From the NCBI GenBank assembly GCA_016704435.1, contig JADJAB010000018.1:3436-67435 (forward strand): a stretch of DNA of 64,000 nt, given 5' to 3'. Below are positions 786 to 24,658 of the stretch, one piece after another. How positions within the stretch are numbered: position 1 is the stretch's first letter; every line of letters starts with the position of its first letter. The notes beneath the pieces were generated by a model. It had not been told where the DNA came from. It made no database searches and saw nothing but the letters and a program-made list of their open reading frames with translations. The position numbers were made by a program, and so were the translations under genes. The stretch is from Rhodobacter sp. (GTDB taxonomy: Bacteria > Pseudomonadota > Alphaproteobacteria > Rhodobacterales > Rhodobacteraceae).

Positions 786-2315
786 TCAATGGAAGTAACC
801 GGGGCCGCGGATATTGCCATGCTGGATCGCGGGCCCGTCTGCGGCCGGTTCGGGCCGTTTGCGATGGAGGTTGTTCTTCAGGATCGAATTGACCGAGGAA
901 TAGGACCGCGCCCCGATCATGAGCGCCCGCTCGCAGGCTGCTTCCAGCGCCTCGGGGCCGTGCGGTTTGGCCAGGCGCATGATGCCGAGGCAGGAGCGGA
1001 ACCCCTGCTCGGGGTGGCTGCGGTCGCGCAGGATTACCTCAACCAGCGTCGCGGTATTGGGCCCGATCTTCGCAGCCCAGTTCTTCAGCCGCTCGGGCGA
1101 CCATTCGGAGTGGCGCTGATGGCTGGCCGGCATGTGATCGGCGATGGTGGTGTGCTTGCGATTGGACGAGGTCCTGGCGTGGGCGGCGACACGTTTGCCG
1201 TGGTGGAAAATCTCGACCGTCCGCGCCGTGAGTCGGACCCAGACCTTCTCCCGCAGCAGGCTGTGCGGGGCCGAGTAGTAATGCTTGTCCACCTCGACGT
1301 GGTAATCGAGGCCGACAGTGCACTGCTTCCATTCAGAGAAAACGTAGGGCTCCGCGGGCAAGGACCGCAGGGCGGATCGCTCGACCTGATTGAACAGGTC
1401 CCGGCGGCTGGCGCCGAGATGCCGGGTCACCCGGTCGTTCAGCCGGTCAAGGAGGACGCGGATGGCGGCGTTCAATTCCGCCAACGAGAAGAACCGCTGG
1501 TTGCGCAGGCGCGCCGCGATCCAGCGCTCTGCGATCTGGACGGCGACTTCCACCTTCGCCTTTGTCGCGGGCTTGCGCGGTCGGGCCGGCACGACTGCCG
1601 TGCCGTAATGCGCGGCCATGTCGGCGTAGGTCCGGTTCACTGCCGGTTCATAAAAGCAGGCCTTGGTCACGCCGGACTTCAGGTTGTCGCATACCACCTG
1701 CGCCGGGACGCCGCCGAAGTAGCTGAAAGCCCGGCAATGCGCGCCGATCCAGTCTGACAGGCTCTGGCTCCAGCTTGCCTCGGCATAGGTCAGGTTCGAG
1801 GCCCCCAGCGTGGCCACGAACAACTGCGCCTGACGAACCTCGCCAGTTGCCGCGTCAATGACGGCCAGCATGGTGCCGGCGTAATCAACGAAGACCCGTT
1901 CACCGGCAACATGGTGCTGGCGCATCACTGGCGTCAGGCGCCCTGTCCAGCGGCGGTGGAGATCGCAGAACCGGCTGTATCCATAGCCTTCCGGATGAAC
2001 GGCGCGGTATTCCTCCCACAGCAGGGACAGCGTCACGCCCGGGCGCTTGAGCTCGCGGTGGATCGCCGGCCAATCCGGTTGCGCCTCGACAAGCCGGATG
2101 GCGCCACCGATCGGATGAAACAGCAGCGCTTCCAACGCGGCGTCCGTCATCTCCGCTGCAAGCGGCCACGTGAGCGCGGCCCGTTCAATCCGCTTCAGAT
2201 ACTCACTGGCGGTGCTCTGCCCGACACCAAGGCTCGTCGCGATCTTCCGGGTCGACAATCCGCTGGCGTGAAGCCGCAGCGCTTCTCTGATCTTCCGCAT
2301 CGTCAGTCTCTTCAT
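786..2315 (-). CDS. istA: IS21 DDE transposase IstA
   Basis: 509-aa ORF with an N-terminal HTH, VFVDYAG, VVCDNLKSGV and KAKVEVAVQ motifs, and a GYFH C-terminus. Confidence 0.95.
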   Translation of the reverse strand: MKRLTMRKIREALRLHASGLSTRKIATSLGVGQSTASEYLKRIERAALTWPLAAEMTDAALEALLFHPIGGAIRLVEAQPDWPAIHRELKRPGVTLSLLWEEYRAVHPEGYGYSRFCDLHRRWTGRLTPVMRQHHVAGERVFVDYAGTMLAVIDAATGEVRQAQLFVATLGASNLTYAEASWSQSLSDWIGAHCRAFSYFGGVPAQVVCDNLKSGVTKACFYEPAVNRTYADMAAHYGTAVVPARPRKPATKAKVEVAVQIAERWIAARLRNQRFFSLAELNAAIRVLLDRLNDRVTRHLGASRRDLFNQVERSALRSLPAEPYVFSEWKQCTVGLDYHVEVDKHYYSAPHSLLREKVWVRLTARTVEIFHHGKRVAAHARTSSNRKHTTIADHMPASHQRHSEWSPERLKNWAAKIGPNTATLVEVILRDRSHPEQGFRSCLGIMRLAKPHGPEALEAACERALMIGARSYSSVNSILKNNLHRKRPEPAADGPAIQHGNIRGPGYFH

Positions 2316-2395
2316 GGGGCCGCCTGCTCTGTTTGAAAGAGCAAGCGTAGCCCGCCGCAGGACTGCCCAGCAGCGTCAGAACCTCACCCCGAAAG

Positions 2396-5005: not shown

Positions 5006-6901
5006 CCCAAGTTCGACAGTTAGCGGTAGGTTTTTGGGCCTGAGGGTTGCCTCGCTTGAGTGATTTCAATGGGTTGCGGGGTGCGCCGGTCGGGTTTGGG
5101 CGAAATCGTGTTGTAACACGCCATGATGTAAATTGCGTTGCGATACAGGCGAAAGCCGATGTATCGTTCGTCCAATGTATACGCGCATCTCAGAATCCGG
5201 CGGTCGTCGCTACCTGCAACTCGTCGAGGGGCATCGCGACGAGCTTGGGAAGGTGCGCATCAGGGTCGTCGCCAATTTGGGCCGGCTCGACAAACTCAGT
5301 CCCGGCCAGCTCGACCCTTTGATCAACGGCCTCAATCGCGCGGTAGGACGGCTCGAAAATACCGCTTCAGACATTGCCTATGAATCTTCGCTCTCCTACG
5401 GCGACGTCTTCGCCCTCCACGAACTCTGGAAGGACCTCGGCTTTGACCGCGCCCTCAGCCGTGCTTTGCGCTCGGGCCGGCGCGAGATCGATGCCGAGGC
5501 GCTGATCCGCGCCATGGTGTTCAACCGCCTCTGCGCTCCGGATAGCAAGCTGGGCTGTCTCCGTTGGCTGGAAACGGTAGCCATGCCCGCGATGCCCGAG
5601 GGCGTGACCCATCAGCATTTGCTGCGCGCCATGGATGCGCTGATGGATCATGCCGAGGTCGTGGAGATCGAACTTGCCCGTCAGATCCGCCCCCTCGTGG
5701 ATCAGGATCTGGCGATTGTCTTCTATGACCTGACGACGGTGCGCATCCATGGCGAGGGGGAGGTTGACGACGACCTGCGCGCCTTTGGGTTGAACAAGGA
5801 GACTGGCGGCATCGCCCGGCAGTTCGTGCTCGGTGTCGTGCAAACCGCCGAAGGGCTGCCGCTCATGCACACCGTTCACCCGGGCAACATGGCAGAGACC
5901 AAGACCATGCAGGCCATGCTGAAAACCGTGCTGCAGCGCTTTCCGGTGCAGCGCGTCATTCTGGTGGCCGATCGGGGGCTGCTGAGCTTTGAGAACATTG
6001 GCGAACTCACCGCGCTTGCCGATCAGGGCGGTCGCAAGCTTGAGTTCATCCTCGCCGTGCCGGCGCGGCGCTACGGCGAACTGGCTGAGACCTTCCGGGG
6101 GCTGTCTTTCTCCGAGGAGGGCCTGACCGAAGCCACCTTCGCTGGCCATCGGCTGATCGTGGCCCATGATCCGGCCCGCGCCGCCCTGCAATCCGCCCGG
6201 CGGCGGGCGCGGATCGCGGAACTGGACGCCATGGCCGAGAAGCTGGTGACACGGCTCGACGCCCAGGATGCCGGAGAGACCGCCCGGGGCCGCCGTGCCT
6301 CAGACCGGGGCGCCTACAGTCGCTTTGCCCGCGCCGTCGCCGAGGCCGAACTGACCCGCTTCCTCAAAGCCGATTACACCGCTGACCGGTTCTCCTGGGC
6401 GCTCGATGATGATGCTATTGCCGCCGCGGAACTCTTCGACGGCAAACTTGCCCTCCTGACCAACGCGCCCGACCTCACCCCCGCCGAGGCCGTCACCCGG
6501 TACAAGTCTCTCGCGGATATCGAACGTGGATTCCGAGTCCTTAAATCCGATATCGAGATAGCGCCGGTCCATCACCGTCTGCCGGATCGCATCCGCGCCC
6601 ACGCCTTGATCTGCTTCCTCGCCCTCGTGCTCTACCGCGTCATGCGCATGCGCCTGAAGGCAAAGGGACACACCGCGAGCCCGCGCACCGCGCTTGATCT
6701 GCTCGCCCGCATTCAGAAACACACCGCCCATGCCGGGAACCGATCCTTGCATGGCATCAGCAAAACCACTCCGGATCAACTCGATCTCTTTGACGCCATG
6801 AACCTGCCCAAACCTGCCCTCTGACGACCGTTGTTGTCATATTTTTGGCCATCCAGCCATAACAATAACAATCGCTTACGCGATTAACTGATGAACTTGG
6901 G
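5006..6901 (+). mobile_element. IS1634-family insertion sequence
   Basis: 17-bp IRs with 2 mismatches, CCCAAGTTCGACAGTTA (5006-5022) and TAACTGATGAACTTGGG (6885-6901), around one transposase ORF. Confidence 0.88.
5175..6824 (+). CDS. IS1634-family DDE transposase
   Basis: MYTRISESGGRRYLQLVE start, with FYDLTT, LVADRG and YKSLADIERGFRVLKS...RIRAHALICFLAL motifs. Confidence 0.93.
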   Translation: MYTRISESGGRRYLQLVEGHRDELGKVRIRVVANLGRLDKLSPGQLDPLINGLNRAVGRLENTASDIAYESSLSYGDVFALHELWKDLGFDRALSRALRSGRREIDAEALIRAMVFNRLCAPDSKLGCLRWLETVAMPAMPEGVTHQHLLRAMDALMDHAEVVEIELARQIRPLVDQDLAIVFYDLTTVRIHGEGEVDDDLRAFGLNKETGGIARQFVLGVVQTAEGLPLMHTVHPGNMAETKTMQAMLKTVLQRFPVQRVILVADRGLLSFENIGELTALADQGGRKLEFILAVPARRYGELAETFRGLSFSEEGLTEATFAGHRLIVAHDPARAALQSARRRARIAELDAMAEKLVTRLDAQDAGETARGRRASDRGAYSRFARAVAEAELTRFLKADYTADRFSWALDDDAIAAAELFDGKLALLTNAPDLTPAEAVTRYKSLADIERGFRVLKSDIEIAPVHHRLPDRIRAHALICFLALVLYRVMRMRLKAKGHTASPRTALDLLARIQKHTAHAGNRSLHGISKTTPDQLDLFDAMNLPKPAL

Positions 6902-8188: not shown

Positions 8189-9142
8189 TCAGAAGTGGTT
8201 TTGCAGTTCTTCGGCGATCTCGAACATGTCGCCGACGATGCCGTAGCGGGCGATGCTGAAGATCGAGGCTTCGGGGTCGGTGTTCACCGCCACGATGGTC
8301 TCGACATGCTTCATGCCCCACTGGTGCTGGACCGAGCCCGAGACGCCCATCGCGATATAGAGCTTGCAACTCGCCGCAAGCTGGCCCGACTGGCCGACCT
8401 GCCGCGCCTTGGGCAGCCAGCCGTTGTCGGCGATGGGCCGCGAGCAGCCGAGCGTGGCGCCCATGCCGCCGGCCAGTTCCAGGAACTGCTCGACATTGCT
8501 CTCGTCGCCAACGCCGCGCCCGATCGACAGGATGAATTCCGAGCCGGGAATGTCGATGCCGCCGGCATCGGCGGGCGGCTTCCAGCCCTCATGCGTGGTG
8601 GCGATATCAGCGGCCGGGGCTGCCATCTCGGTCACCTTGGGCGAACCCGAACCGGCGGCCGGCTCGAACACGTTGGTGCGGATGGTCAAGAGCACCGTCT
8701 CCTTGCCGGGGAAGTCGAGGTCGACCAGCACCTTCTCGGCATAGCCGGCACGGGTGGCGACCAGCGCGCCGTCCTCAAGCCGCAGCGCCTGCACATCGGT
8801 GGCCAGGCCGCAGCCCAGCTTGACCGCGGCAGCCGGCGCGAACGACCAGGCATCGACACCGTGCGCGGTGGCGATCAGCGCGGGCTTGCGCGCCTCGGCC
8901 AGCGCCAGGATCACCGCCTCGGTCAGGTCGGGCTGGAAGTCGTCGCTCGCCTTGATGGCGATCACCTCGTCCACCCCCTCGACCGAGAGCGCGCCGACAA
9001 GCGCCTGCGGATCGGCGGCGATCAGGGCAACCGCCAGCGTGTCGCCCGCCAGCTTGACGCTGCGTGCGGCGGCGATGGCCTCCAGCGACGCCGGGTGCAG
9101 TTCACCCGCGCGCTGTCCGGCAATGACAAGAAGTTCAGCCAT
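8189..9142 (-). CDS. etfA: electron transfer flavoprotein alpha subunit, TMADH-type (copy 1)
   Basis: 317 aa with GCSRPIAD, RQVGQSG and GVSGSVQH FAD motifs. It closely follows my recollection of Methylophilus methylotrophus ETF alpha (VDFPGK..VLLTIR, SIGRG). Confidence 0.95.
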   Translation of the reverse strand: MAELLVIAGQRAGELHPASLEAIAAARSVKLAGDTLAVALIAADPQALVGALSVEGVDEVIAIKASDDFQPDLTEAVILALAEARKPALIATAHGVDAWSFAPAAAVKLGCGLATDVQALRLEDGALVATRAGYAEKVLVDLDFPGKETVLLTIRTNVFEPAAGSGSPKVTEMAAPAADIATTHEGWKPPADAGGIDIPGSEFILSIGRGVGDESNVEQFLELAGGMGATLGCSRPIADNGWLPKARQVGQSGQLAASCKLYIAMGVSGSVQHQWGMKHVETIVAVNTDPEASIFSIARYGIVGDMFEIAEELQNHF

Positions 9143-9145
9143 GGA

Positions 9146-9931
9146 TCACATCCCCCGCAATTCTTTGATGATTTCGGCCAGACGGGCCGCCTGCTCGGCC
9201 GCCGATCCGGTGATCAGCTCGGCCTTGCCGCGCTCGGGCGCATACATCTTGCGCACCCGCGCAACCGGGGCGATGTCGGCCGCCGACAGCCCCAGATCGT
9301 CCAGAGACAGCTCGTCCACCGGCTTTTGCTTGGCCTGCTTGATGCCGCGCAGCGAGGCATAGCGCGGCTGGTTGATGCCCAGCTGGATCGACAAAACCGC
9401 CGGGCAGCGGATCGTCATGATCTCTTCCAGCCCGCCCTCCAACTCGCGCCGCAGCGTCGCGGTCTTGGCCCCCGGCGTGTAATCAAGGTTGCACACCACC
9501 GCGGCATGCGGCCAGCCCAGCAGGCCAGCCAACGCCATGCCGGTGACCGCCGAGCCGAAATCGGCCGATTGCGCGCCGGTAAAAACCATGTCCGGCTGTT
9601 CACGTTCCACCAGCCTGGCCAGAACCCGCGCAACCGCCACGCCATCGGCTTCGGCCAGCGCATCATCCCAGACCCGGATGCCGCGGTCGGCCCCCTTGGC
9701 CAGCGCGGTGCGCAGCGCATCATCGGCATCCTCGTCGCCGACGATGGCGATCACCACCTCGGCGGCGTCGCCTGCAGCCTCCTTGATCAGCATCGCCTCT
9801 TCGACCGAAAAGTGATCGAATTCGTTGAGATCCTTCTCGAAGAAATCCGCGTCGACATCGCGCCCGTCGGCGCGCATCTCGAACTCGTCATCAAGAAAAG
9901 CGGCCTGCTTGACCGCCACCAGTATCTTCAT
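9146..9931 (-). CDS. etfB: electron transfer flavoprotein beta subunit, TMADH-type (copy 1)
   Basis: MKILVAVKQ...ALAKGADR...RRELEGG...IQLGINQPRYASLRGIKQA, matching the methylotroph ETF beta type. Confidence 0.95.
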   Translation of the reverse strand: MKILVAVKQAAFLDDEFEMRADGRDVDADFFEKDLNEFDHFSVEEAMLIKEAAGDAAEVVIAIVGDEDADDALRTALAKGADRGIRVWDDALAEADGVAVARVLARLVEREQPDMVFTGAQSADFGSAVTGMALAGLLGWPHAAVVCNLDYTPGAKTATLRRELEGGLEEIMTIRCPAVLSIQLGINQPRYASLRGIKQAKQKPVDELSLDDLGLSAADIAPVARVRKMYAPERGKAELITGSAAEQAARLAEIIKELRGM

Positions 9932-10000
9932 CTCTGCTGCTCCATTTCCAGATCCTGTATCAATGCCGAACGCGCCAGATGCGCCGCGGCCGCATGGCGG
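9928..10000 (-). pseudogene. 3' remnant of an LRV/HEAT-repeat gene
   Basis: Reads RHAAAAHLARSALIQDLEMEQQR*, compared with the LRV protein C-terminus RFAAATRLARALLTHDQEWSS* (17469-). Its stop overlaps the etfB ATG (ATGA). Confidence 0.6.
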
Positions 10001-10001
10001 T

Positions 10002-10042
10002 GCCGTGCCCGGGGGGGGTCACCCTTGCGTTCCGGGCACGGC
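10002..10042 (-). terminator. GC-rich hairpin downstream of the GcvT-like gene
   Basis: Perfect 11-bp stem GCCGTGCCCGG / CCGGGCACGGC. No U-tract. Confidence 0.5.
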
Positions 10043-10068
10043 GGGATTGGCGAGCTGACGACGCCTGC

Positions 10069-11166
10069 CTACATGCGCATGCGCTTTTTCTCTTTGTCGT
10101 AGAACGGAAGGTCTTCGACCGTGACGTCCACGGCATCCGCGGCATTGCCGAGTTTCAGCTTGGTCCCTTCGGCGATGCCCGGGCGGATGTGGACCAGCGC
10201 GAGCGACCGTCCAAGACGGTGGGAATATTCAGAGCTGGTGACCGCCCCGACTTTCTCGCCCTTCAGAAAGAGGTCCGTGCCCCCCTCGATGATGCCTTTG
10301 CTGGAGGTGCAGGAAATACCGGTCAGCCTGACCTTTTCCTTGCCTTCCTTCTTCAGCACGGCCTCCCGGCCGAGGTAGGCGGGTTTCTTGCGGGAGATCG
10401 CCCAGCCCAGCCCCATCTCCCACGGCGTGACCTTGTCGTCCATGTCGAAGGGATAGAACAGCAGCCCGGCCTCCATTCGGCCCTTGTTCAGGCAGGTGAA
10501 AGAGCAAGGAACAACGCCATCCTCTTCGCCGGCCTTGAGGATGCTGTTCCACAGACCAACCGCATCCTTGCGATCAACAAAGATCTCATAGCCGCGCTCG
10601 CCCGAATAGCCGGTACGCGACACGATCGCCTTGTGGCCAAACAGCTCGGTCTGGATCAGCCCGAAAAATTCCACAGCTGCCACGTCCGCAGGGCAGTTCG
10701 CATCAAGCAGCTTCACCGCCTTGGGGCCCTGCAGCGACAGGGTGTGCAGCTCGTCGTCCTTCTCCAGCTTGACGTTCTTGCCTTTTGCCGCAAGGGCCAG
10801 ACGCTCATCGCCAGTGCCGGTGCCGTAGACGAAGAGATACTTGTCGTCTTCGACGCGATAGATGATGACGTCGTCACAGATCGTGCCTTCGTCGGTCAGG
10901 ATCGGGCAATAGGCCGATTTGCCCTTGGTGACCTTGCTCATGTCACGGGGCGAGACCATGTCGATGACGGCCGAAGCGTCAGGCCCCTTGACCCAGATCT
11001 TCTTGAGACCGGTAAGGTCGAACAGCCCGGCCGCTTCGCGCATGGCGTCCAGTTGGTTGTCGGCTGAGTTGGTATAGCTCCACGGCACGTCCATGTCGTT
11101 CCATGGTCCAAGCCCGGCGCCCAGGCCGCGGTGAATGTCCTCGAGTGCGGATGTTCGTTTGGCCAT
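10069..11166 (-). CDS. stand-alone GcvT-like aminomethyltransferase (THF-binding)
   Basis: 365 aa with GLFDLT, EGTICDDVIIYR, SRTGYSGERGYEI, RMEAG and LPFYD C-terminal motifs. No gcvH or gcvP nearby. Confidence 0.9.
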   Translation of the reverse strand: MAKRTSALEDIHRGLGAGLGPWNDMDVPWSYTNSADNQLDAMREAAGLFDLTGLKKIWVKGPDASAVIDMVSPRDMSKVTKGKSAYCPILTDEGTICDDVIIYRVEDDKYLFVYGTGTGDERLALAAKGKNVKLEKDDELHTLSLQGPKAVKLLDANCPADVAAVEFFGLIQTELFGHKAIVSRTGYSGERGYEIFVDRKDAVGLWNSILKAGEEDGVVPCSFTCLNKGRMEAGLLFYPFDMDDKVTPWEMGLGWAISRKKPAYLGREAVLKKEGKEKVRLTGISCTSSKGIIEGGTDLFLKGEKVGAVTSSEYSHRLGRSLALVHIRPGIAEGTKLKLGNAADAVDVTVEDLPFYDKEKKRMRM

Positions 11167-11404: not shown

Positions 11405-13675
<2,271 letters not shown>

Positions 13676-14602: not shown

Positions 14603-15279
14603 TCAATCGGAAGCCACCTTCCGGGAAATACCCGCGCTTTCGCCCCGCGGGCGCCGCCGGCTGAACCTTGCGATTGAACCAAGTGCGTCCAACGCTCCAG
14701 CGGATAGGATTATCGCCGTTCCGACCAGCTTCTCGCCGCCATAAGGCTCGCCGGCCCACAACGACGCGCTGACTGAGGCTGCAATCACTTCGAACATCAA
14801 CAGAAGCGACACCCGACCCGGATCAAGGCGTTGCGCGCCCCAGACCATTGCCCAGGTGATCGGAATCAAGATGAAAAGAGCCGCAGCCGTGGCAAAGGGA
14901 ACCACCGCAAGCAGCTGGTCGGCGTCAGGTGCGGGATATACCGGATTGACCACTATGAAGATTGCCGCGATTCCTGCGCCGAAGACGAAACTCAGCCAGG
15001 TCTTCTCGACCTCGTAGCTTCCCTTGACCTTGTGGGCGAAGGTCGCACCGACCGCAAAGGTGATGCCGGAGCCAAGCCCCATCCACTCGCCCAGCCCGGC
15101 GGCGCGAGGCAGATTGCTGCAATGCAGAGCACCACGACGCTTGCCCAGTCGCCGCGAAATCCGAACGCATCGATCGTCCGCAGCGGAATCCACCAGCAGC
15201 CCCAGGCGGCTGCCGACGCGACCACGACCGCTGACGCATGCAGGTTCGACGATGGGCTGGTCATCAGTTGCGCAGTCAT
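14603..15279 (-). pseudogene. DMT/EamA-family transporter, frameshifted and apparently internally shortened
   Basis: The N-part (VVVASAAAWGCWWIPLR) and C-part (WGAQRLDPGRVSLLLMFEVIAASVSA..LWAGE) are in different frames. Together they give ~225 aa against ~300 expected. Confidence 0.7.
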
Positions 15280-15726: not shown

Positions 15727-16680
15727 TCAGAAGTGGTTTTGGAGTTCTTCGGCGATTTCGAACATGTCGCCGACGATGCCGTAGCGGGCGATGCTGAAGA
15801 TCGAGGCCTCGGGGTCGGTGTTCACCGCCACGATGTTCTCGACATGCTTCATGCCCCATTGATGCTGGACCGAGCGCGAGACGCCCATCGCGATGTAAAG
15901 CTTGCAATTGGCCGCAAGCTGACCCGACTGGCCGACCTGGCGCGCCTTGGGCAGCCAGCCGTTGTCGGCGATGGGGCGCGAGCAGCCAAGCGTGGCGCCC
16001 ATGCCGCCGGCCAGTTCCAGGAACTGCTCGACATTGCTCTCATCGCCAACGCCGCGCCCGATCGACAGGATGAATTCCGAGCCGGGAATGTCGATGCCGC
16101 CGGCATCGGCGGGCGGCTTCCAGCCCTCATGCGTGGTGGCGATATCGGCGGCAGGGGCTGCCATCGCGGTCACCTTGGGCGCGCCCGAGCCGGCGGCCGG
16201 CTCGAACACGTTGGTGCGGATGGTCAGGAGCACGGTGGCCTTGCCGGGAAAGTCGAGGTCGACCAGCACCTTCTCGGCATAGCCGGCACGGGTGGCGACC
16301 AGCGCGCCGTCCTCAAGCCGCAGCGCCTGCACGTCGGTGGCCAGGCCACAGCCCAGTTTCACCGCGGCGGCCGGCGCGAACGACCAGGCATCGACGCCGT
16401 GCGCGGTGGCGATCAGCGCGGGCTTGCGCGCCGCGACCAGGGCGGTGATCACCGCCTCGGTCAGGTCGGGCTGGAAGTCGTCGCTCGCCTTGATGGCGAT
16501 CACCTCGTCCACCCCCTCGACCGAGAGCGCGCCGACAAGCGCCTGCGGATCGGCGGCGATCAGGACAACCGCCAGCGTGTCGCCCGCCTGCTTGACGCCG
16601 CGTGCGGCGGCGATGGCCTCCAGCGACGACGGGCGCAGCTCGCCCTCGCGCTGCCCGGCAATGACAAGAAGTTCGGCCAT
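15727..16680 (-). CDS. etfA: ETF alpha subunit (copy 2); G-to-R change in the FAD motif
   Basis: Near-identical paralog of 8189-9142. GVSRSVQH instead of GVSGSVQH, from a single base at 15876. Confidence 0.92.
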   Translation of the reverse strand: MAELLVIAGQREGELRPSSLEAIAAARGVKQAGDTLAVVLIAADPQALVGALSVEGVDEVIAIKASDDFQPDLTEAVITALVAARKPALIATAHGVDAWSFAPAAAVKLGCGLATDVQALRLEDGALVATRAGYAEKVLVDLDFPGKATVLLTIRTNVFEPAAGSGAPKVTAMAAPAADIATTHEGWKPPADAGGIDIPGSEFILSIGRGVGDESNVEQFLELAGGMGATLGCSRPIADNGWLPKARQVGQSGQLAANCKLYIAMGVSRSVQHQWGMKHVENIVAVNTDPEASIFSIARYGIVGDMFEIAEELQNHF

Positions 16681-16682
16681 GG

Positions 16683-17467
16683 TCACATTCCCCGCAATTC
16701 TTTGATGATTTCGGCCAGACGCGCCGCCTGTTCGGCCGCCGATCCGGTGATCAGCTCGGCCTTGCCGCGCTCGGGCGCATACATCTTGCGCACCCGCGCA
16801 ACCGGGGCGACGTCGGCCGCCGACAGTCCCAGATCGTCCAGCGACAGCTCGTCCACCGGCTTTTGCTTGGCCTGCTTGATGCCGCGCAGCGAGGCATAGC
16901 GCGGCTGGTTGATGCCAAGCTGGATCGACAAAACCGCCGGGCAGCGGATCGTCATGATCTCTTCCAGCCCGCCCTCCAGCTCGCGCCGCAGCGTCGCGGT
17001 CTTGGCCCCGGCGTGTAATCAAGGTTGCACACCACCGCGGCATGCGGCCAGCCCAGCAGTCCGGCCAGCGCCATGCCGGTGACCGCCGAGCCGAAATCGG
17101 CCGATTGCGCGCCGGTGAAGACCATGTCGGGCTGTTCACGCTCCACCAGCTTGGCCAGAACCCGCGCAACCGCCACGCCATCGGCTTCGGCCAGCGCATC
17201 ATCCCAGACCCGGATGCCGCGGTCGGCCCCCTTGGCCAGCGCGGTGCGCAGCGCATCATCGGCATCCTCGTCGCCGACGATGGCGATCACCACCTCGGCC
17301 GCGTCGCCCGCCGCCTCCTTGATCAGCATCGCCTCTTCGACCGAGAAGTGGTCGAATTCGTTGAGATCCTTCTCGAAGAAATCCGCGTCAACGTCGCGAC
17401 CGTCGTCGCGCATCTCGAATTCGTCATCAAGAAAGGCGACCTGCTTGACCGCCACCAGTATCTTCAT
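16683..17467 (-). CDS. etfB: ETF beta subunit (copy 2), one frameshift in a C-run
   Basis: Paralog of 9146-9931. It has 4 C at 17006-17009 where copy 1 has 5 C (9469-9473). Confidence 0.88.
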
Positions 17468-17468
17468 C

Positions 17469-18875
17469 TCAGCTGCTCCATTCCTGGTCATGTGTCAGTA
17501 AGGCGCGCGCAAGCCGTGTTGCGGCGGCAAAGCGCACCTGCGGCTCGGGATCGTCCAGCAGACGCTCCACCAACGGCAGCGCCAGGCCGCGATGCCCCGC
17601 GAGGATCGCGCGGTTCAACGGATACGGATCCTCGGCCAGATGCCCGAGAACGCCCGGCGGCGCGGCGCGGTTGAAGGCGACAGAGCGGCGCACATCCTTG
17701 TCCGGATGGCGGGCGATCACGTCCAGTTGTGCTGCGGGGGTGCGCGGATTGCGCCCCAGCGCGCCCAGCACGTCGCGATCTTCATCACCCGTCAGACGGG
17801 CGATGGCCGTGTCGGGTGCATCTTCACGCAGGGCCACTCCGGCGCGCACCCAGGGCTGCGGATCGGTGGCAAGCGCCACCAGCAGATCCGGCGGGCAAGC
17901 CGGATTGCGGGCCACGCTGCGCCGCACCTCCGTCTCTGGATCGGCCGCCAGCTGGCCTAGCAGGGCGCGCGGCAGGTCGGGATTGCGGGCGATCCAGCGC
18001 CGCACCCAGACATCCGGGTCGGTCGTCAGCCGTTCCATCAGAGACGACGAAAGCCGACTGCGCCTGGCAAACAGACGACGGACCCTGGCTGAAGGGTCGC
18101 CGGCCTCGTCGAGACAGTCGCCCGAGACGGCCGGATTGCGGACCGCCGCCGCACGCACTCGCTCATCTGGGTCGGCCAGCAGGTTCAGAAGCGCCGCCTC
18201 AGCGATGGCGGGGTTTGCGGCGCGTTTGCGGCGGATCAGCGGATCGGTCGCCGCCTCGGCCTCGGCAAGGATGTCGGGCGGGCAATTCGGGTGCGCCGCC
18301 ACCTCGGCGCGCACCCAGACATCGTCCGCGTTCCAAAGGTGGCGCAGGGTCGGCGCATTGGCCTGCGGTGCTGCGGCGGCGTTGCGCGCAATCTGGGCGT
18401 CATCTTCTGCCGCCAGCCGCGCGATCACCGCAGCGGGCGCATGGGCATTGCCCGAGACCGTGCGGCGCACCTCGACCGATCCGTCCTTTGCCAGCCGCGA
18501 CAGGATCGCGGCATCCGCCTGCGGATGGGCGGCGATGTAGCGGCGCAGGCGGTCATCCGGGCCGCCGCGCAGCAGACGGCCAAGGGCGGTGGTCGGTGTG
18601 GCCGGGTTCTTCACCAGCCGCAGCGCCAGCGGTGCCGAGGCCCCGCGCGACAGCCGGTCGAGCAGATCGGGCGGCGCATAGGGGGCAGAGGCCACGATCA
18701 GCCGCAGGCGCGGGGTTGCCAGGATGACCGGTTCCAGTTCCGACCGTGCCATGGCCCCGGCATGGGCATAGGCCCCAAGCGCCGCGTAGGGATCGCCGGC
18801 CTTCACGAGCCGGTCGATCAACGCGCTGGCGGCAGTCTCAGGCTCCATTTGCCGGTTTTCCGCCAAGCAGTTCAT
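17469..18875 (-). CDS. LRV/HEAT-like repeat solenoid protein (468 aa)
   Basis: About 16 repeats of ~24 aa, consensus VRxxVARNPxxPxxLLxxLAxDPD. ATGA overlap with the upstream Fe-S gene and a 1-nt gap to etfB. Confidence 0.85.
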   Translation of the reverse strand: MNCLAENRQMEPETAASALIDRLVKAGDPYAALGAYAHAGAMARSELEPVILATPRLRLIVASAPYAPPDLLDRLSRGASAPLALRLVKNPATPTTALGRLLRGGPDDRLRRYIAAHPQADAAILSRLAKDGSVEVRRTVSGNAHAPAAVIARLAAEDDAQIARNAAAAPQANAPTLRHLWNADDVWVRAEVAAHPNCPPDILAEAEAATDPLIRRKRAANPAIAEAALLNLLADPDERVRAAAVRNPAVSGDCLDEAGDPSARVRRLFARRSRLSSSLMERLTTDPDVWVRRWIARNPDLPRALLGQLAADPETEVRRSVARNPACPPDLLVALATDPQPWVRAGVALREDAPDTAIARLTGDEDRDVLGALGRNPRTPAAQLDVIARHPDKDVRRSVAFNRAAPPGVLGHLAEDPYPLNRAILAGHRGLALPLVERLLDDPEPQVRFAAATRLARALLTHDQEWSS

Positions 18876-21031
18876 GCCGTCGCTACCGGTTCGGTCGCAT
18901 CGGCATCTTCACCCAGGGACGGCGTGTTATGGGCCAGTCCCATGGCTTCCTGAACCAGTTCGATCAGTTCCATCACCTTGAACCTGCCTTCGTTTCCGGT
19001 GCCCTTGACGCCGTCTTCCATCATGTTCAGGCATTTCGGGCAGTTGACGACCAGCACGTCCAGCCCGGCGATCTCGGCCGCCTCGGCGGCGCGCAATTCA
19101 GCCGGCTTCTTCATTTCCGGGGGATCGGCCAGCCAGATCCGGCCACCACCCGCACCGCAGCAGAACGAGTTGTCGCGGCTGCGGCGCAGTTCCACCAGAT
19201 TGACGCCCAGCCGTTCCAGCACCTGACGCGGCGGCTCCGTCCCGTCGTTGATCCGGCCAAGGTGGCAAGGGTCATGATAGGTCACACGATACTTCAGGCT
19301 GACCGGCGTTGGCACGGTGCCCTCGCGGATCAGCCGCTCCAGCATCGCGCTTGCATGCTCGATCTGGTAGGTGCCGCCGAACTCGGGATATTCGTTCTTG
19401 ATGGTGTTGTAGGTGTGCGGATCGGTGGTGACGATCGACTTGAAGTCGCAGCTGTTCATCAACTCGATATTGGCCTCGGCCAGCGACTGGAACAGACCTT
19501 CTTCGCCAACGCGGCGGACGTCGTTGCCGGCGGTCTGCTCGTCCTCATAGAGGATGCCGAAGTCGATCCCGGCCGCATGCAGGATGCGGGCAAAGGCGAT
19601 CGTCACCTTTTGCGAGCGCGGATCGAATGAGGCGTAGTCACCGACATACCACAGCACGTCCACCGGCTCGGTCCGCGCGTCCTTGACCTCGAAGTCCAGA
19701 TCCTTGGTCCAGCGCGGCCGCTTGCGCTTGGACTCGCCCAGCGAGTTGCCGGATTTCTGCAGGCTCTTCAGCGTCGATTGCAACATCGGGTCGAACTCGC
19801 CCGCTTCCAGCAGCGCCCGGCGCATCTGCACGATCATCGGCAAGTGTTCGATCCCCACCGGGCAGATCTCGACGCAGGCGGCACAGGTCCGGCAGGACCA
19901 GACCGTTTCCGGACGGATCATGTTGACGCCGTCGCCAGAAATGGTGATCGGTCCTTCGGGCATGCTGGCGTGCGACAGCGTGTCGTTGGCCAACTCACGC
20001 AGGCTCAGCACCAGATCGCGCGGCGACAGCGGGTAGCCGGCGGCATTGGCCGGGCAGGCCTCATGGCAGCGCCCGCATTTGGTGCAGGCATCGACGTTGA
20101 CCATGTATTTGTCGGTGAAATCGGTAAGCAGGGAAAAGCCGATCCGCTCGCCCTCGACATCGGCCGTCGGCATGCGCCGCTTGGCCTCGGGGTCGCGCGC
20201 CATCAACGAGCCCATCGCGGTGAAGATGTGCTTCACCTTGGTGTAGGGAACCAGCGAGATGAACAGCAGCGCCAGCATCCCGTGGAACCACCACAGGCTC
20301 ATGCGCAGTTCCGCCGCCCCGTCAGGACCAAGGCCCAGCGCCTTCATCAGATAGGCGGTCGCGGTGCCCACCGGCGCGAACCAGCGGTAATCCCAGACCG
20401 ACGGGTCGCCCTGAAGCCAGACCACGCGCGACGCTTCCAGCAGATAGCCGGTGAACGCAATCGTGATCAGCGTCCAGAGAAAGGCCCAATCCTCGCGCCG
20501 ATAGCCCGAGCGGTCATAGTCCGGGTCGCCGGGCGAGCGGTCGGGGCGGGTATAGTCAAGCCGGGGCAATGCCAGCCATTTGCGCCGATACATCATGTAG
20601 AGCAGCCCGCCGATCAGCGCGACGCCCGCCAGATCCATCACCGTCCCGAAGGCCAAATAGAACCAGCCATACCAGAAGTGGATGCCAAACGGGCCCAGGA
20701 TGTCCTGGTCCAGCGTGATGGTGCTGGTACCGATGAAGAGCAGCGCAAAGCCGAAGAACAGCCAGCTGTGGCTGATGCCCGCCGCCCGCGCGCGCCGTTT
20801 GATGGTGCGATGGGACAGCACCGTCGTCACCATCTGACTGAGCCGCGGCCAGAATGGCGACCAGGCACCCGAGCGCACACCGCGACGGTATTTGCGGATA
20901 TGCGTCCAGACCCCGTAGAGGAAAACACCGATCGCCAGAAATCCGACTATGTAGAAGCTGACGATCATCCAGGTCGGGAAATCCTGAAACAGGATACGTG
21001 TCACGTCCTTTGGGTTGTGTTCGGGAAACAT
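18872..21031 (-). CDS. membrane-bound Fe-S oxidoreductase, FadF/YwjF/EMO type (NarI-like TM domain, two 4Fe-4S, two CCG domains)
   Basis: N-terminal TM helices, CTKCGRCHEACP and CRTCAACVEICP, YHDPCHLGR, CCGAGGG and NCPKC. Confidence 0.88.
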   Translation of the reverse strand: MFPEHNPKDVTRILFQDFPTWMIVSFYIVGFLAIGVFLYGVWTHIRKYRRGVRSGAWSPFWPRLSQMVTTVLSHRTIKRRARAAGISHSWLFFGFALLFIGTSTITLDQDILGPFGIHFWYGWFYLAFGTVMDLAGVALIGGLLYMMYRRKWLALPRLDYTRPDRSPGDPDYDRSGYRREDWAFLWTLITIAFTGYLLEASRVVWLQGDPSVWDYRWFAPVGTATAYLMKALGLGPDGAAELRMSLWWFHGMLALLFISLVPYTKVKHIFTAMGSLMARDPEAKRRMPTADVEGERIGFSLLTDFTDKYMVNVDACTKCGRCHEACPANAAGYPLSPRDLVLSLRELANDTLSHASMPEGPITISGDGVNMIRPETVWSCRTCAACVEICPVGIEHLPMIVQMRRALLEAGEFDPMLQSTLKSLQKSGNSLGESKRKRPRWTKDLDFEVKDARTEPVDVLWYVGDYASFDPRSQKVTIAFARILHAAGIDFGILYEDEQTAGNDVRRVGEEGLFQSLAEANIELMNSCDFKSIVTTDPHTYNTIKNEYPEFGGTYQIEHASAMLERLIREGTVPTPVSLKYRVTYHDPCHLGRINDGTEPPRQVLERLGVNLVELRRSRDNSFCCGAGGGRIWLADPPEMKKPAELRAAEAAEIAGLDVLVVNCPKCLNMMEDGVKGTGNEGRFKVMELIELVQEAMGLAHNTPSLGEDADATEPVATA

Positions 21032-21130
21032 CCGGAGCGTTCCTTTGCGTTTATATCGGCGCCGTACTGGCACCGGATGTCAGGGAAATGGCGGCCAGGC
21101 ACTCTCTCGCATGGCCGCCAGAGTGTCAGA

Positions 21131-23344
<2,214 letters not shown>

Positions 23345-23372: not shown

Positions 23373-23945
23373 TCAGCTATTCGTTGCGGTCGGATCCTGC
23401 GTGGCGAGCAGAAGCGCCGCGCCAAGAAACTTGCGCATGTCGTCGAAGACGGCCGGCTTCTCGCCGCGCCAGCGGTCGTGCAGCCGGAAGGGCGCGGAGG
23501 CGCCGTTGGCCGCAGCATCAAGGCAGGCGGCCGCTTCGCGCGCAAAATTCAACGTCCGGCGGCGCATGTTGGCCTGATAGGTGTCCCAATGCTTGGCCTC
23601 CATCCGCAGATGGAACAGCGAACTGCGGGCACGCCGGGCAATGGTCATGCCCTCGACCCAGTCCGGCACTGCGCCCCACAAACGAAGGGCATGGGCATAG
23701 CGCCGCCGCGCCAGGGCCTCGTTCCCGGTCAGCCGTGCCGCCATCCCGGCATTGGCAAGGCTGGTCGCATAGCGCGGATCGCTGCGCGAAAGCCGCAACA
23801 TCGCCAACCACCAGGCGCGCCGCCACAGGCGCGCGGCGCGGTGGCTGTCGCCGTTGCGCAGCGCGGCATGCGCCTGCTCCTGCAGCCGTTCCCAGCCCAG
23901 GTCACAGCCACGCCACCCCGCAGCACGCGCTGCGGCAAGCCCCAT
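23373..23945 (-). CDS. conserved hypothetical TPR-like protein (start uncertain: 23945, 23981 or 23993)
   Basis: Helical segments RAARLWRRAW, DPRYATSLANAG and ARRRYAHALRLW. It sits between the ABC ATPase and tmd on the same strand. Confidence 0.65.
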   Translation of the reverse strand: MGLAAARAAGWRGCDLGWERLQEQAHAALRNGDSHRAARLWRRAWWLAMLRLSRSDPRYATSLANAGMAARLTGNEALARRRYAHALRLWGAVPDWVEGMTIARRARSSLFHLRMEAKHWDTYQANMRRRTLNFAREAAACLDAAANGASAPFRLHDRWRGEKPAVFDDMRKFLGAALLLATQDPTATNS

Positions 23946-23952
23946 ATCGGGC

Positions 23953-24658
23953 TCAGGCGCCAAGATAAGCACGTCGGACATGGTCGTTCTCATGAAGATC
24001 CCTCGCTTTCCCCTCAAGCACGAGGTCACCGGTTTCGAGCACATAGGCGTGGTCCGCCAGTTCCAGCGCCAGCTCGGCGTTCTGTTCCACCAGGATCACC
24101 GCAACGCCCTGCTTGCTGATTTCCTCGATGATCACCGCGATCTCTTCGACGATGACCGGGGCGAGGCCCATCGACGGCTCGTCAAGCAGCAGCAGTCTGG
24201 GCTTGGCCATCAGCGCGCGGCCGATCGCCAGCATCTGCTGCTCGCCGCCGGACATGGTCTTGGCAAACTGGGTGCGCCGTTCGCGCAGGCGGGGGAAGCG
24301 CTGAAACACTGCCTCCAGATCGGCGGCAACCTGCACCTTGTCGCGCCGCAGGAAGGCACCGGTGCGCAGATTTTCCTCAACGGTAAGGTCGGGGAATACC
24401 CGCCGCCCTTCGGGCATGGGCGATGCCGCGGGCGACAATTTTCTCGGGCGGCAGCCGGTCGATCCGCTGACCATCAAACCAGATCTCGCCGCCTGACAGT
24501 TTCGCAAGACCCGAGATCGCGCGCAGCGTCGTGGTCTTGCCGGCGCCATTGCCGCCGATGATCGTGACGATCCCGCTTGCCGGGGCCTGCAGCGTGATAT
24601 TCCGGATCGCCGAAACCTTCTGGTAGTTTACCGATGCGTCCTTGACCTCAAGCAACAT
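23953..24658 (-). CDS. HAAT-family ABC ATPase (LivF-like), frameshift near 24415
   Basis: GGNGAGKTT, MSGGEQQMLAIGRALM and LLLLDEPS motifs, split over two frames. Confidence 0.9.

Follow-up and report, generated by a model that had tools for sequence, protein, structure and literature searches.

What is a helical repeat protein doing between a membrane iron-sulphur (Fe-S) protein and an electron transfer flavoprotein (ETF)? The question is raised by a gene at positions 17469..18875 (minus strand) of a 64,000-nucleotide stretch of Rhodobacter sp. DNA (assembly GCA_016704435.1, contig JADJAB010000018.1, positions 3,436 to 67,435; hereafter the window), where it lies in a cluster with the order tmd-FeS-LRV-etfB-etfA, tmd being the gene for trimethylamine dehydrogenase (TMADH). 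An original prediction for this locus had described the product as an LRV/HEAT-like solenoid whose gene is coupled in translation to those of the membrane Fe-S protein and ETF on either side, and had proposed it as a dedicated scaffold or maturation factor of the TMADH-ETF-oxidoreductase chain. We found that the gene belongs to a conserved orthologous group that occupies the same place in three classes of Proteobacteria. Anatomy and gene context point to a non-catalytic adaptor or accessory/assembly subunit acting at the step between ETF and the Fe-S protein, a reading to which we give a probability of roughly 45%.

The ATG-to-TGA open reading frame (ORF) encodes 468 aa. Its product matched the Pfam families LRV (PF01816; E=9e-36, 120.3 bits against a cut-off of 21.6), LRV_2 (PF25591; 53.8 bits, cut-off 27) and HEAT (PF02985; 46 bits, cut-off 23.5, a single stretch at residues 433-456), and no NCBIfam model matched it. 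BLOSUM autocorrelation of the protein had maxima at lags of 26, 52, 78 and 104 residues, with a value of 0.50 at lag 26 compared with -0.28 for the best of 300 shuffles, and residues 26 to 467 formed 17 units of exactly 26 aa in one indel-free register, corresponding to approximately 16 two-helix repeats and a C-terminal cap. Thus, of the approximately 16 repeats of about 24 aa originally proposed, the number stood, but the period has to be corrected to 26 aa. Across the 17 units, the consensus was roughly D-P-x-x-x-V-R-R-x-[VI]-A-x-N-P-x-x-P-x-x-x-L-x-x-L-A-x, and the protein as a whole was rich in Ala (19.9%), Leu (12.4%), Arg (12.0%) and Pro (9.2%).

An AlphaFold2 run on the protein with 24 orthologs produced a model (pLDDT 93.8, pTM 0.84) with 34 short helices arranged in pairs, and the protein is accordingly predicted to be an all-alpha solenoid; together with the matches to Pfam LRV, LRV_2 and HEAT, this model bears out the kind of fold first proposed. 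The top Foldseek matches of the model were the HEAT scaffolds of the PP2A A subunit (E ~1e-7, probability 1.0), with TM scores of only 0.25-0.43 and root-mean-square deviations of 13-20 Å, and the 26-aa unit, shorter than the approximately 37-47 aa by which HEAT repeats are defined, is not a canonical HEAT repeat, although in its presumed function the protein resembles HEAT-type scaffolds. With the LRV protein of known structure, PDB 1LRV, the ortholog profile gave E=4e-13 (hmmsearch) and the model gave E=1.2e-5 in Foldseek, with a TM score of 0.53 on the 1LRV length and 29% identity. The protein is therefore a member of the LRV repeat family by both sequence and fold, with an orthologous group of its own.

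Neither the sequence nor the model had an evident signal peptide or transmembrane segment. No Fer4-type Pfam match indicative of a 4Fe-4S domain was present, the only cysteines being four scattered ones at residues 3, 198, 253 and 327, and Pfam revealed no DNA-binding or signalling domain. The protein has invariant His117 and His195 (identical repeat position, 26 x 3 residues apart) and a near-invariant Cys198, which made a metal or cofactor site a candidate; we rejected it because the conserved His, Asn and Cys residues recur every 26 aa at one repeat position and are thus better read as a structural ladder. The protein has no catalytic motif and no conserved metal- or cofactor-binding motif. 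Conservation peaks in repeats 10-16 (residues 260-441), a distribution compatible with a binding platform.

The junctions of the gene with its neighbours are tight. Its start codon shares bases with the stop codon of the upstream Fe-S gene in an ATGA (GGCATGAAC), and just one G separates its own TGA from the ATG of etfB (AGCTGAGATGAAG); the ATGA overlap and the 1-nt gap reported earlier were thus both seen in the sequence, and the junctions support the proposed translational coupling. The ATGA overlap was retained in the four closest relatives (loci L012, L013, L015 and L019), and the Fe-S stop and LRV start adjoin or overlap across the loci. At the other end of the gene, the distance from the LRV stop to the etfB start had a median of 21 nt over 39 loci and was 5 nt or less, or an overlap, in 11 of them. 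A scan for promoters and terminators revealed nothing meaningful within the operon.

The cluster also appears to be transcribed. Wastewater and sludge metagenomes of the years 2015 to 2025 contained nearly identical DNA, and contigs from wastewater metatranscriptomes mapped to tmd, the Fe-S gene, the LRV gene and etfBA. Specifically, one such contig (18682..18987) spans the FeS/LRV junction with zero mismatches and a second spans the tmd/FeS junction, which fits co-transcription, with the reservation that these data are contigs and may include carried-over DNA. Contig depth was lower over the LRV gene than over tmd, depth of this kind being a weak measure.

The identities of the enzymes around the solenoid were established by comparison with proteins of known structure. 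The product of tmd (21131..23329, minus strand; 732 aa, Pfam Oxidored_FMN plus an OYE-like second domain) is an ortholog of Methylophilus methylotrophus TMADH (1DJN), to which it aligned end-to-end over residues 5-732 with 1290 bits. The Cys of the 6-S-cysteinyl-flavin mononucleotide (6-S-cysteinyl-FMN; 'PHCIGAG') and the 4Fe-4S motif CxxCxxC...C are conserved, and the enzyme is a true trimethylamine dehydrogenase (EC 1.5.8.2). The next gene (18872..21073, minus strand), whose actual start is probably the ATG near 21034, encodes an EtfD/DgcB-type membrane Fe-S protein with Pfam 4Fe-4S dicluster and two CCG domains and a QmoC-like membrane part, homologous to Mycobacterium smegmatis EtfD (PDB 9OJN; E=8.7e-72). 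In an alignment with 9OJN (PMC13083937), it retains the equivalents of the noncubane D2 ligands Cys637, Cys672, Cys673, Cys709, Cys712 and His583, whereas D, T, D and T, respectively, stand in place of Cys503, Cys538, Cys581 and Cys584, which in mycobacterial EtfD bind the linear 3Fe-4S cluster (D1). Retention of the D2 ligands and replacement of all four D1 cysteines assign it to the DgcB/FadF type (PMC13083937). By homology, and by the adjacency of etfBA in all homologs inspected, it probably functions as an ETF-oxidising quinone reductase. The acidic C-terminal tail of the Fe-S proteins was 13-22 aa long in loci with LRV and 3-11 aa in three loci without it, in what is a small sample; in the window, this C-terminus (18875..~18980) carries an acidic tail to which the Arg-rich solenoid could bind. 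An argument from charge complementarity between the solenoid (pI 8.4, net charge +2) and ETF (pI 4.6) was too weak and was dropped.

How widely is this arrangement conserved? A search of 5.8 billion proteins revealed a family of orthologs of approximately 455 aa with 33-56% identity, all unnamed or called hypothetical. LRV orthologs in the order FeS-LRV-etfB-etfA were found at approximately 45 loci in Alpha-, Beta- and Gammaproteobacteria with 33-73% identity; they are of similar length (about 455 aa) and have many residues that never vary. The LRV superfamily is far larger, an exhaustive profile search having returned 25,122 representatives at E<=1e-3; the best 150 of these matches include about 30 full-length, single-stretch proteins of 450-530 aa (clusters at 50% identity), which we take to be the orthologous group. 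A genome scan with an alignment of nine sequences and two peptide patterns located 32 orthologous loci in Rhodobacterales, Hyphomicrobiales, Kiloniellaceae, Rhodospirillales and several gammaproteobacterial lineages, a list that is incomplete, the scan having missed the betaproteobacterial orthologs. Wherever the contig extends, the Fe-S gene is immediately upstream of LRV and etfBA immediately downstream at these loci, with Tabrizicola soli as the exception. For example, plasmid IV of Paracoccus aminovorans carries tmd-FeS-LRV-etfB-etfA-gcvT with 78.7% nucleotide identity, its LRV product (WP_074966978.1 in strain JCM 7685) being annotated as a hypothetical protein, and Hyphomicrobium sp. D-2 has the full set, including FeS-LRV-etfB-etfA. 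The same order of these four genes was observed in an Arenicellales chromosome, an Aromatoleum sp. contig, marine contigs, and plasmids of Azoarcus KH32C and Cupriavidus. Conservation of this position within the module over three proteobacterial classes argues for a dedicated role.

Two exceptions are informative about which neighbour matters most. In Tabrizicola soli (L012), LRV overlaps the Fe-S gene, but etfBA lies 4.5 kb away behind a dimethylamine dehydrogenase (DMADH) gene and gcvT. A Hyphomicrobium metagenome-assembled genome (MAG; L039, 6700..12192) has the order TetR-FeS-LRV-etfB-etfA and contains no TMADH gene in the 6.8 kb upstream of it, so that the FeS-LRV-etfBA sink module may serve dehydrogenases other than TMADH; a gene for a 699-aa DAO-family flavoprotein is located nearby on the opposite strand. 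Since the FeS-LRV pair is intact in both exceptions, it constitutes the constant core, and the tightest partner of the LRV gene is the EtfD/DgcB-type Fe-S gene and not tmd. At three further MAG loci (L028, L042 and L043), the tblastn match of FeS or LRV was split into two overlapping pieces, and etfB was also truncated in L043; these are possibly decayed copies or assembly errors.

The distribution of LRV across tmd loci sets limits to its role. Seven records of the plasmid collection encode a TMADH of at least 71% identity, and these seven alone also carry a close Fe-S protein (at least 57%) and LRV; the next TMADH-family enzymes, of 47% identity or less, occur without LRV. Further tmd loci were found using the M. 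methylotrophus TMADH sequence as the anchor. A Methylophilus-like contig, whose TMADH is 93% identical to the M. methylotrophus enzyme, carries tmd-FeS with an LRV ortholog 2 nt past FeS, in what is the classic model genus for TMADH-ETF; the contig ends inside the LRV gene, before the place where etfBA would follow. In a betaproteobacterial-type locus (L048, 10001..16072), the order is tmd-FeS-etfB-etfA, with a TMADH 83% identical to that of M. methylotrophus and a 4-nt overlap of FeS and etfB; this locus is without LRV and can be regarded as a natural 'deletion' control for the LRV gene. Two actinobacterial-type loci have tmd-etfBA-FeS-gcvT without LRV, and two further tmd loci have no Fe-S gene nearby. 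In a planctomycete-like contig (L051, 11333..14500), tmd is followed by a gene for a 1055-aa FeS::EtfB fusion, without LRV, and a similar fusion, again without LRV, is present next to a TMADH-family gene in Shinella sp. PSBB067 (L009 7767..11069, NZ_CP069303.1). The linkers of these two fusions, each of approximately 105 aa, are homologous to each other, helical and Pro/Ala-rich, with no similarity to LRV. In haloarchaea and Agrobacterium, more distantly related homologs occur in the order etfBA-FeS, likewise without LRV.

Taken together, LRV is close to universal in the proteobacterial arrangement in which etfBA comes after tmd-FeS, and is absent from the other arrangements. The co-occurrence with tmd and etf anticipated in the original prediction was thus found in most proteobacterial tmd-FeS-etfBA loci but not in the actinobacterial-type, fusion and L048 loci. 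Because LRV is missing from several types of tmd locus, it must be an accessory part and not a general requirement of TMADH.

How would such a part work? TMADH (or DMADH) would oxidise the amine, ETF would carry the electrons, and the EtfD/DgcB-type membrane Fe-S/haem protein would hand them to quinone. The soluble solenoid, whose synthesis is tied by translational coupling to that of the Fe-S protein and ETF, would act through protein-protein binding at the step between ETF and the membrane protein. It would either keep ETF, and perhaps the dehydrogenase too, close to the cytoplasmic side of the Fe-S protein, or stabilise or assemble the Fe-S protein. Purified TMADH and ETF of M. methylotrophus form a complex and transfer electrons with no other proteins (PDB 1O94/1O95). 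Since this transfer works alone, the solenoid is not needed there, and the step between ETF and the membrane protein remains; it is at this step that we infer partner binding and action.

The ETF docking site of mycobacterial EtfD is stated as open, ETF not having co-purified; AlphaFold3 predicts that a disordered C-terminal region of EtfD holds ETF, and proteins of the DgcB/FadF type are without such a region (PMC13083937). The place right after the CCG domains is therefore filled in three ways, by the tail in mycobacteria, by the FeS::EtfB linker in Shinella and L051, and by the coupled solenoid in the proteobacterial tmd modules. The occurrence of the FeS::EtfB fusion at the same junction in two distant lineages indicates that tethering of ETF to the Fe-S protein is a recurring solution. 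Several observations weigh against a docking or accessory subunit. DgcB/FadF-type proteins elsewhere serve ETF without LRV, and the close tmd-FeS-etfBA locus L048 has no LRV, so docking is not strictly LRV-dependent. In addition, none of 213 LRV-type proteins was fused to an Fe-S protein, ETF or TMADH, and an LRV-specific extension looked for on the Fe-S proteins was not seen. Gene order alone also cannot distinguish a stable subunit from a transient assembly factor.

That last point leads to the alternative that we rank second, although we consider it unlikely, namely that the solenoid acts as a transient chaperone in which the membrane Fe-S/haem protein or ETF finds help in assembly or maturation (cluster, haem or FAD loading, or membrane insertion) and stays outside the working complex. 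Such a chaperone would account for the tight FeS-LRV linkage and coupling too, HEAT-like solenoids are known as cofactor-delivery adaptors from other systems, and the lower metatranscriptome depth over LRV than over tmd points the same way, weak as that measure is. However, close homologs of the Fe-S protein mature without LRV in L048 and in the fusion and actinobacterial loci, and the solenoid has no conserved metal- or cofactor-binding motif, its His, Asn and Cys residues lying on the 26-aa repeat ladder. A maturation factor specific for TMADH or DMADH, which might for example hold the apo-enzyme during covalent 6-S-cysteinyl-FMN formation, 4Fe-4S insertion or ADP binding, ranks lower and seems quite improbable. 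Recombinant TMADH from Escherichia coli is largely deflavo, and on plasmids LRV accompanies only true TMADH orthologs and not the family enzymes of 40-47% identity, as such a factor would suggest; but TMADH orthologs of 66-83% identity exist without LRV, the gene lies between FeS and etfB and never adjoins tmd, and L039 has FeS-LRV-etfBA without tmd.

The huge and functionally undefined LRV superfamily (25,122 representatives at E<=1e-3) and the lineages in which the module functions without LRV would also be compatible with a passenger, or with a regulator acting for instance as a sensor or decoy, that has no direct electron-transfer role and is retained by chance or polarity. We consider this very improbable, since position and coupling are kept down to 35% identity in three classes and the protein has no DNA-binding or signalling domain. 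High-GC DNA yields many long ORFs on both strands, but the chance that the reading frame is one of these and no gene at all is negligible, being refuted by the Pfam match (9e-36), dozens of orthologs, the confident fold, synteny and transcripts. The adaptor or accessory subunit at the ETF-FeS step thus stays first in our ranking. A bolder form of it, which we regard as a long shot, would make the solenoid a stoichiometric third component uniting TMADH/DMADH, ETF and the EtfD-type protein in a membrane-bound supercomplex. If so, the 'soluble' amine dehydrogenase system would be a tethered respiratory complex, and the solenoid would correspond, in trans, to the tail that holds ETF in mycobacterial EtfD and to the FeS::EtfB fusions.

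Downstream of the solenoid gene, etfB copy 1 (16683..17467, minus strand), which starts 1 nt past the LRV stop, consists of two overlapping frames, and is followed by etfA copy 1 (15727..16680, minus strand; Pfam ETF and ETF_alpha). Relative to etfB2, etfB copy 1 is one G short in a G5 run near 17005-17009, which splits it into the two frames; it is either a pseudogene or the result of a homopolymer sequencing error. Metagenome contigs over this copy have the extra base, but they also carry the differences and flanks of etfB2. The second copies, etfB2 (9146..9931, minus strand) and etfA2 (8189..9142, minus strand), are intact by Pfam and NCBIfam. Nucleotide identity is 96.3% between etfB1 and etfB2, with a single 1-base gap, and approximately 95% between etfA1 and etfA2, indicating that the ETF genes were duplicated recently or homogenised. 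The second pair belongs to a set that also includes a DMADH-like TMADH-family gene (11405..13663, minus strand; 752 aa, 65% identical to tmd) and a gene for a GcvT-like aminomethyltransferase (10069..11166, minus strand; Pfam GCV_T and GCV_T_C, and NCBIfam).

The 137-nt spacer between gcvT and etfB2 (9932..10068, minus strand) had been proposed to hold a fossil second copy of the LRV gene, a claim that did not survive closer comparison. Only the approximately 20 nt beside etfB2, which include the ribosome-binding site and the final codons of LRV, are clearly homologous to the LRV 3' end, with 17 of the last 20 nt identical and 50-65% identity thereafter. More than 45 nt upstream of etfB2, DNA similarity was at chance level (p ~0.23-0.26 against shuffles and random window segments), and a tblastn search of the window with the LRV protein gave only 15 of 32 aa at 10041..9946 with E=0.07. 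The fossil copy was therefore rejected (p ~0.25 beyond 45 nt); at most, the leader and last few LRV codons may have moved with etfB. The spacer also contains an 11-bp inverted repeat (GCCGTGCCCGG...CCGGGCACGGC), identical to one at the equivalent position in T. soli (L012, about 14790..14950), and this repeat between gcvT and etfB may form an RNA hairpin.

Upstream of tmd, a conserved hypothetical gene (23373..24044, minus strand; 223 aa) without a Pfam or NCBIfam match encodes a product 59% identical to that of the equivalently placed P. aminovorans gene, and may be listed as a further conserved gene of the tmd locus without an assigned family. Orthologs of the DMT/EamA and small-protein genes, which lie 3' of etfA in other loci, were not found in the window. 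Genes for a Mu-type transposase (786..2375, minus strand; rve and Mu-transpos_C_2) and a DDE_Tnp_1 transposase (5133..6824, plus strand) are both within a few kb of the second ETF/DMADH cluster, and the related clusters of Paracoccus, Azoarcus, Cupriavidus and Paraburkholderia are plasmid- or megaplasmid-borne. The tmd/ETF module appears to be mobile.

TMADH-ETF is a textbook model of interprotein electron transfer, and the genes linking it to the respiratory chain have hardly been examined. In a literature search, we found no paper tying LRV or HEAT repeats to TMADH, DMADH, ETF or DgcAB, and the named public records of the LRV orthologs are all 'hypothetical protein', in agreement with the original impression that the solenoid had not been described. 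The structure of an LRV protein was solved in 1996, and its role has reportedly been unclear since; the present locus would supply the first functional context for a member of this large repeat family. A dedicated solenoid at the FeS-ETF junction is a concrete candidate for ETF docking on EtfD-type oxidoreductases, with the lineages that have a covalent fusion instead of the solenoid, or lack it, as natural controls. Bacterial removal of trimethylamine (TMA) is also of practical interest for wastewater and for gut work on TMA and trimethylamine N-oxide, and a full parts list of the pathway would aid its transfer to other hosts.

Among repeat proteins, the closest comparison is the Azotobacter vinelandii LRV protein (1LRV, PF01816), which shares the short helix-pair repeat with the window protein. 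The Azotobacter protein has 244 aa with about eight repeats and an N-terminal 4Fe-4S domain, whereas the window protein has 468 aa in 17 units, no cluster-binding domain and an orthologous group tied to FeS-etfBA. HEAT scaffolds such as the PP2A A subunit (PR65) are likewise elongated all-helical solenoids, and they bind partner proteins; however, their unit is approximately 39 aa compared with 26 aa here, and no sequence relation exists beyond the repeat pattern.

Among electron-transfer systems, the M. methylotrophus W3A1 TMADH-ETF complex (1DJN, 1O94) contains the TMADH to which the window tmd product is orthologous; to our knowledge, the system studied in vitro included TMADH and ETF only, without the Fe-S protein or the solenoid. 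In the Pseudomonas DgcA-DgcB system with EtfAB, used for dimethylglycine demethylation, a single cluster brings together a flavoenzyme of the TMADH family, a membrane Fe-S protein of the DgcB type and an etfBA pair of its own. DgcB-like matches in Burkholderia and Ralstonia align only to residues 264-711 of the window Fe-S protein, and the records concerned have no LRV match and an enzyme only about 40% identical to TMADH. DgcB is discussed in the paper on the mycobacterial EtfD structure (PDB 9OJN; EMBO J 2026, PMC13083937). In that EtfD, a non-catalytic appendage predicted to hold ETF comes directly after the CCG domains, and the LRV gene sits equivalently; but in EtfD the appendage belongs to the polypeptide itself, as a disordered tail, whereas the LRV product is a separate folded solenoid, and the window Fe-S protein, like DgcB/FadF and unlike mycobacterial EtfD, is without the linear 3Fe-4S (D1) ligands. 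The FeS::EtfB fusions of Shinella sp. PSBB067 and L051 have the module in common with the window, comprising a TMADH-family enzyme, an EtfD-type Fe-S protein, EtfB and EtfA, but their junction element is the linker of about 105 aa in one polypeptide, unlike the separate LRV protein. Overall, the module is a variant of the known DgcAB-EtfAB and EtfD-EtfBA systems to which a single conserved component has been added.

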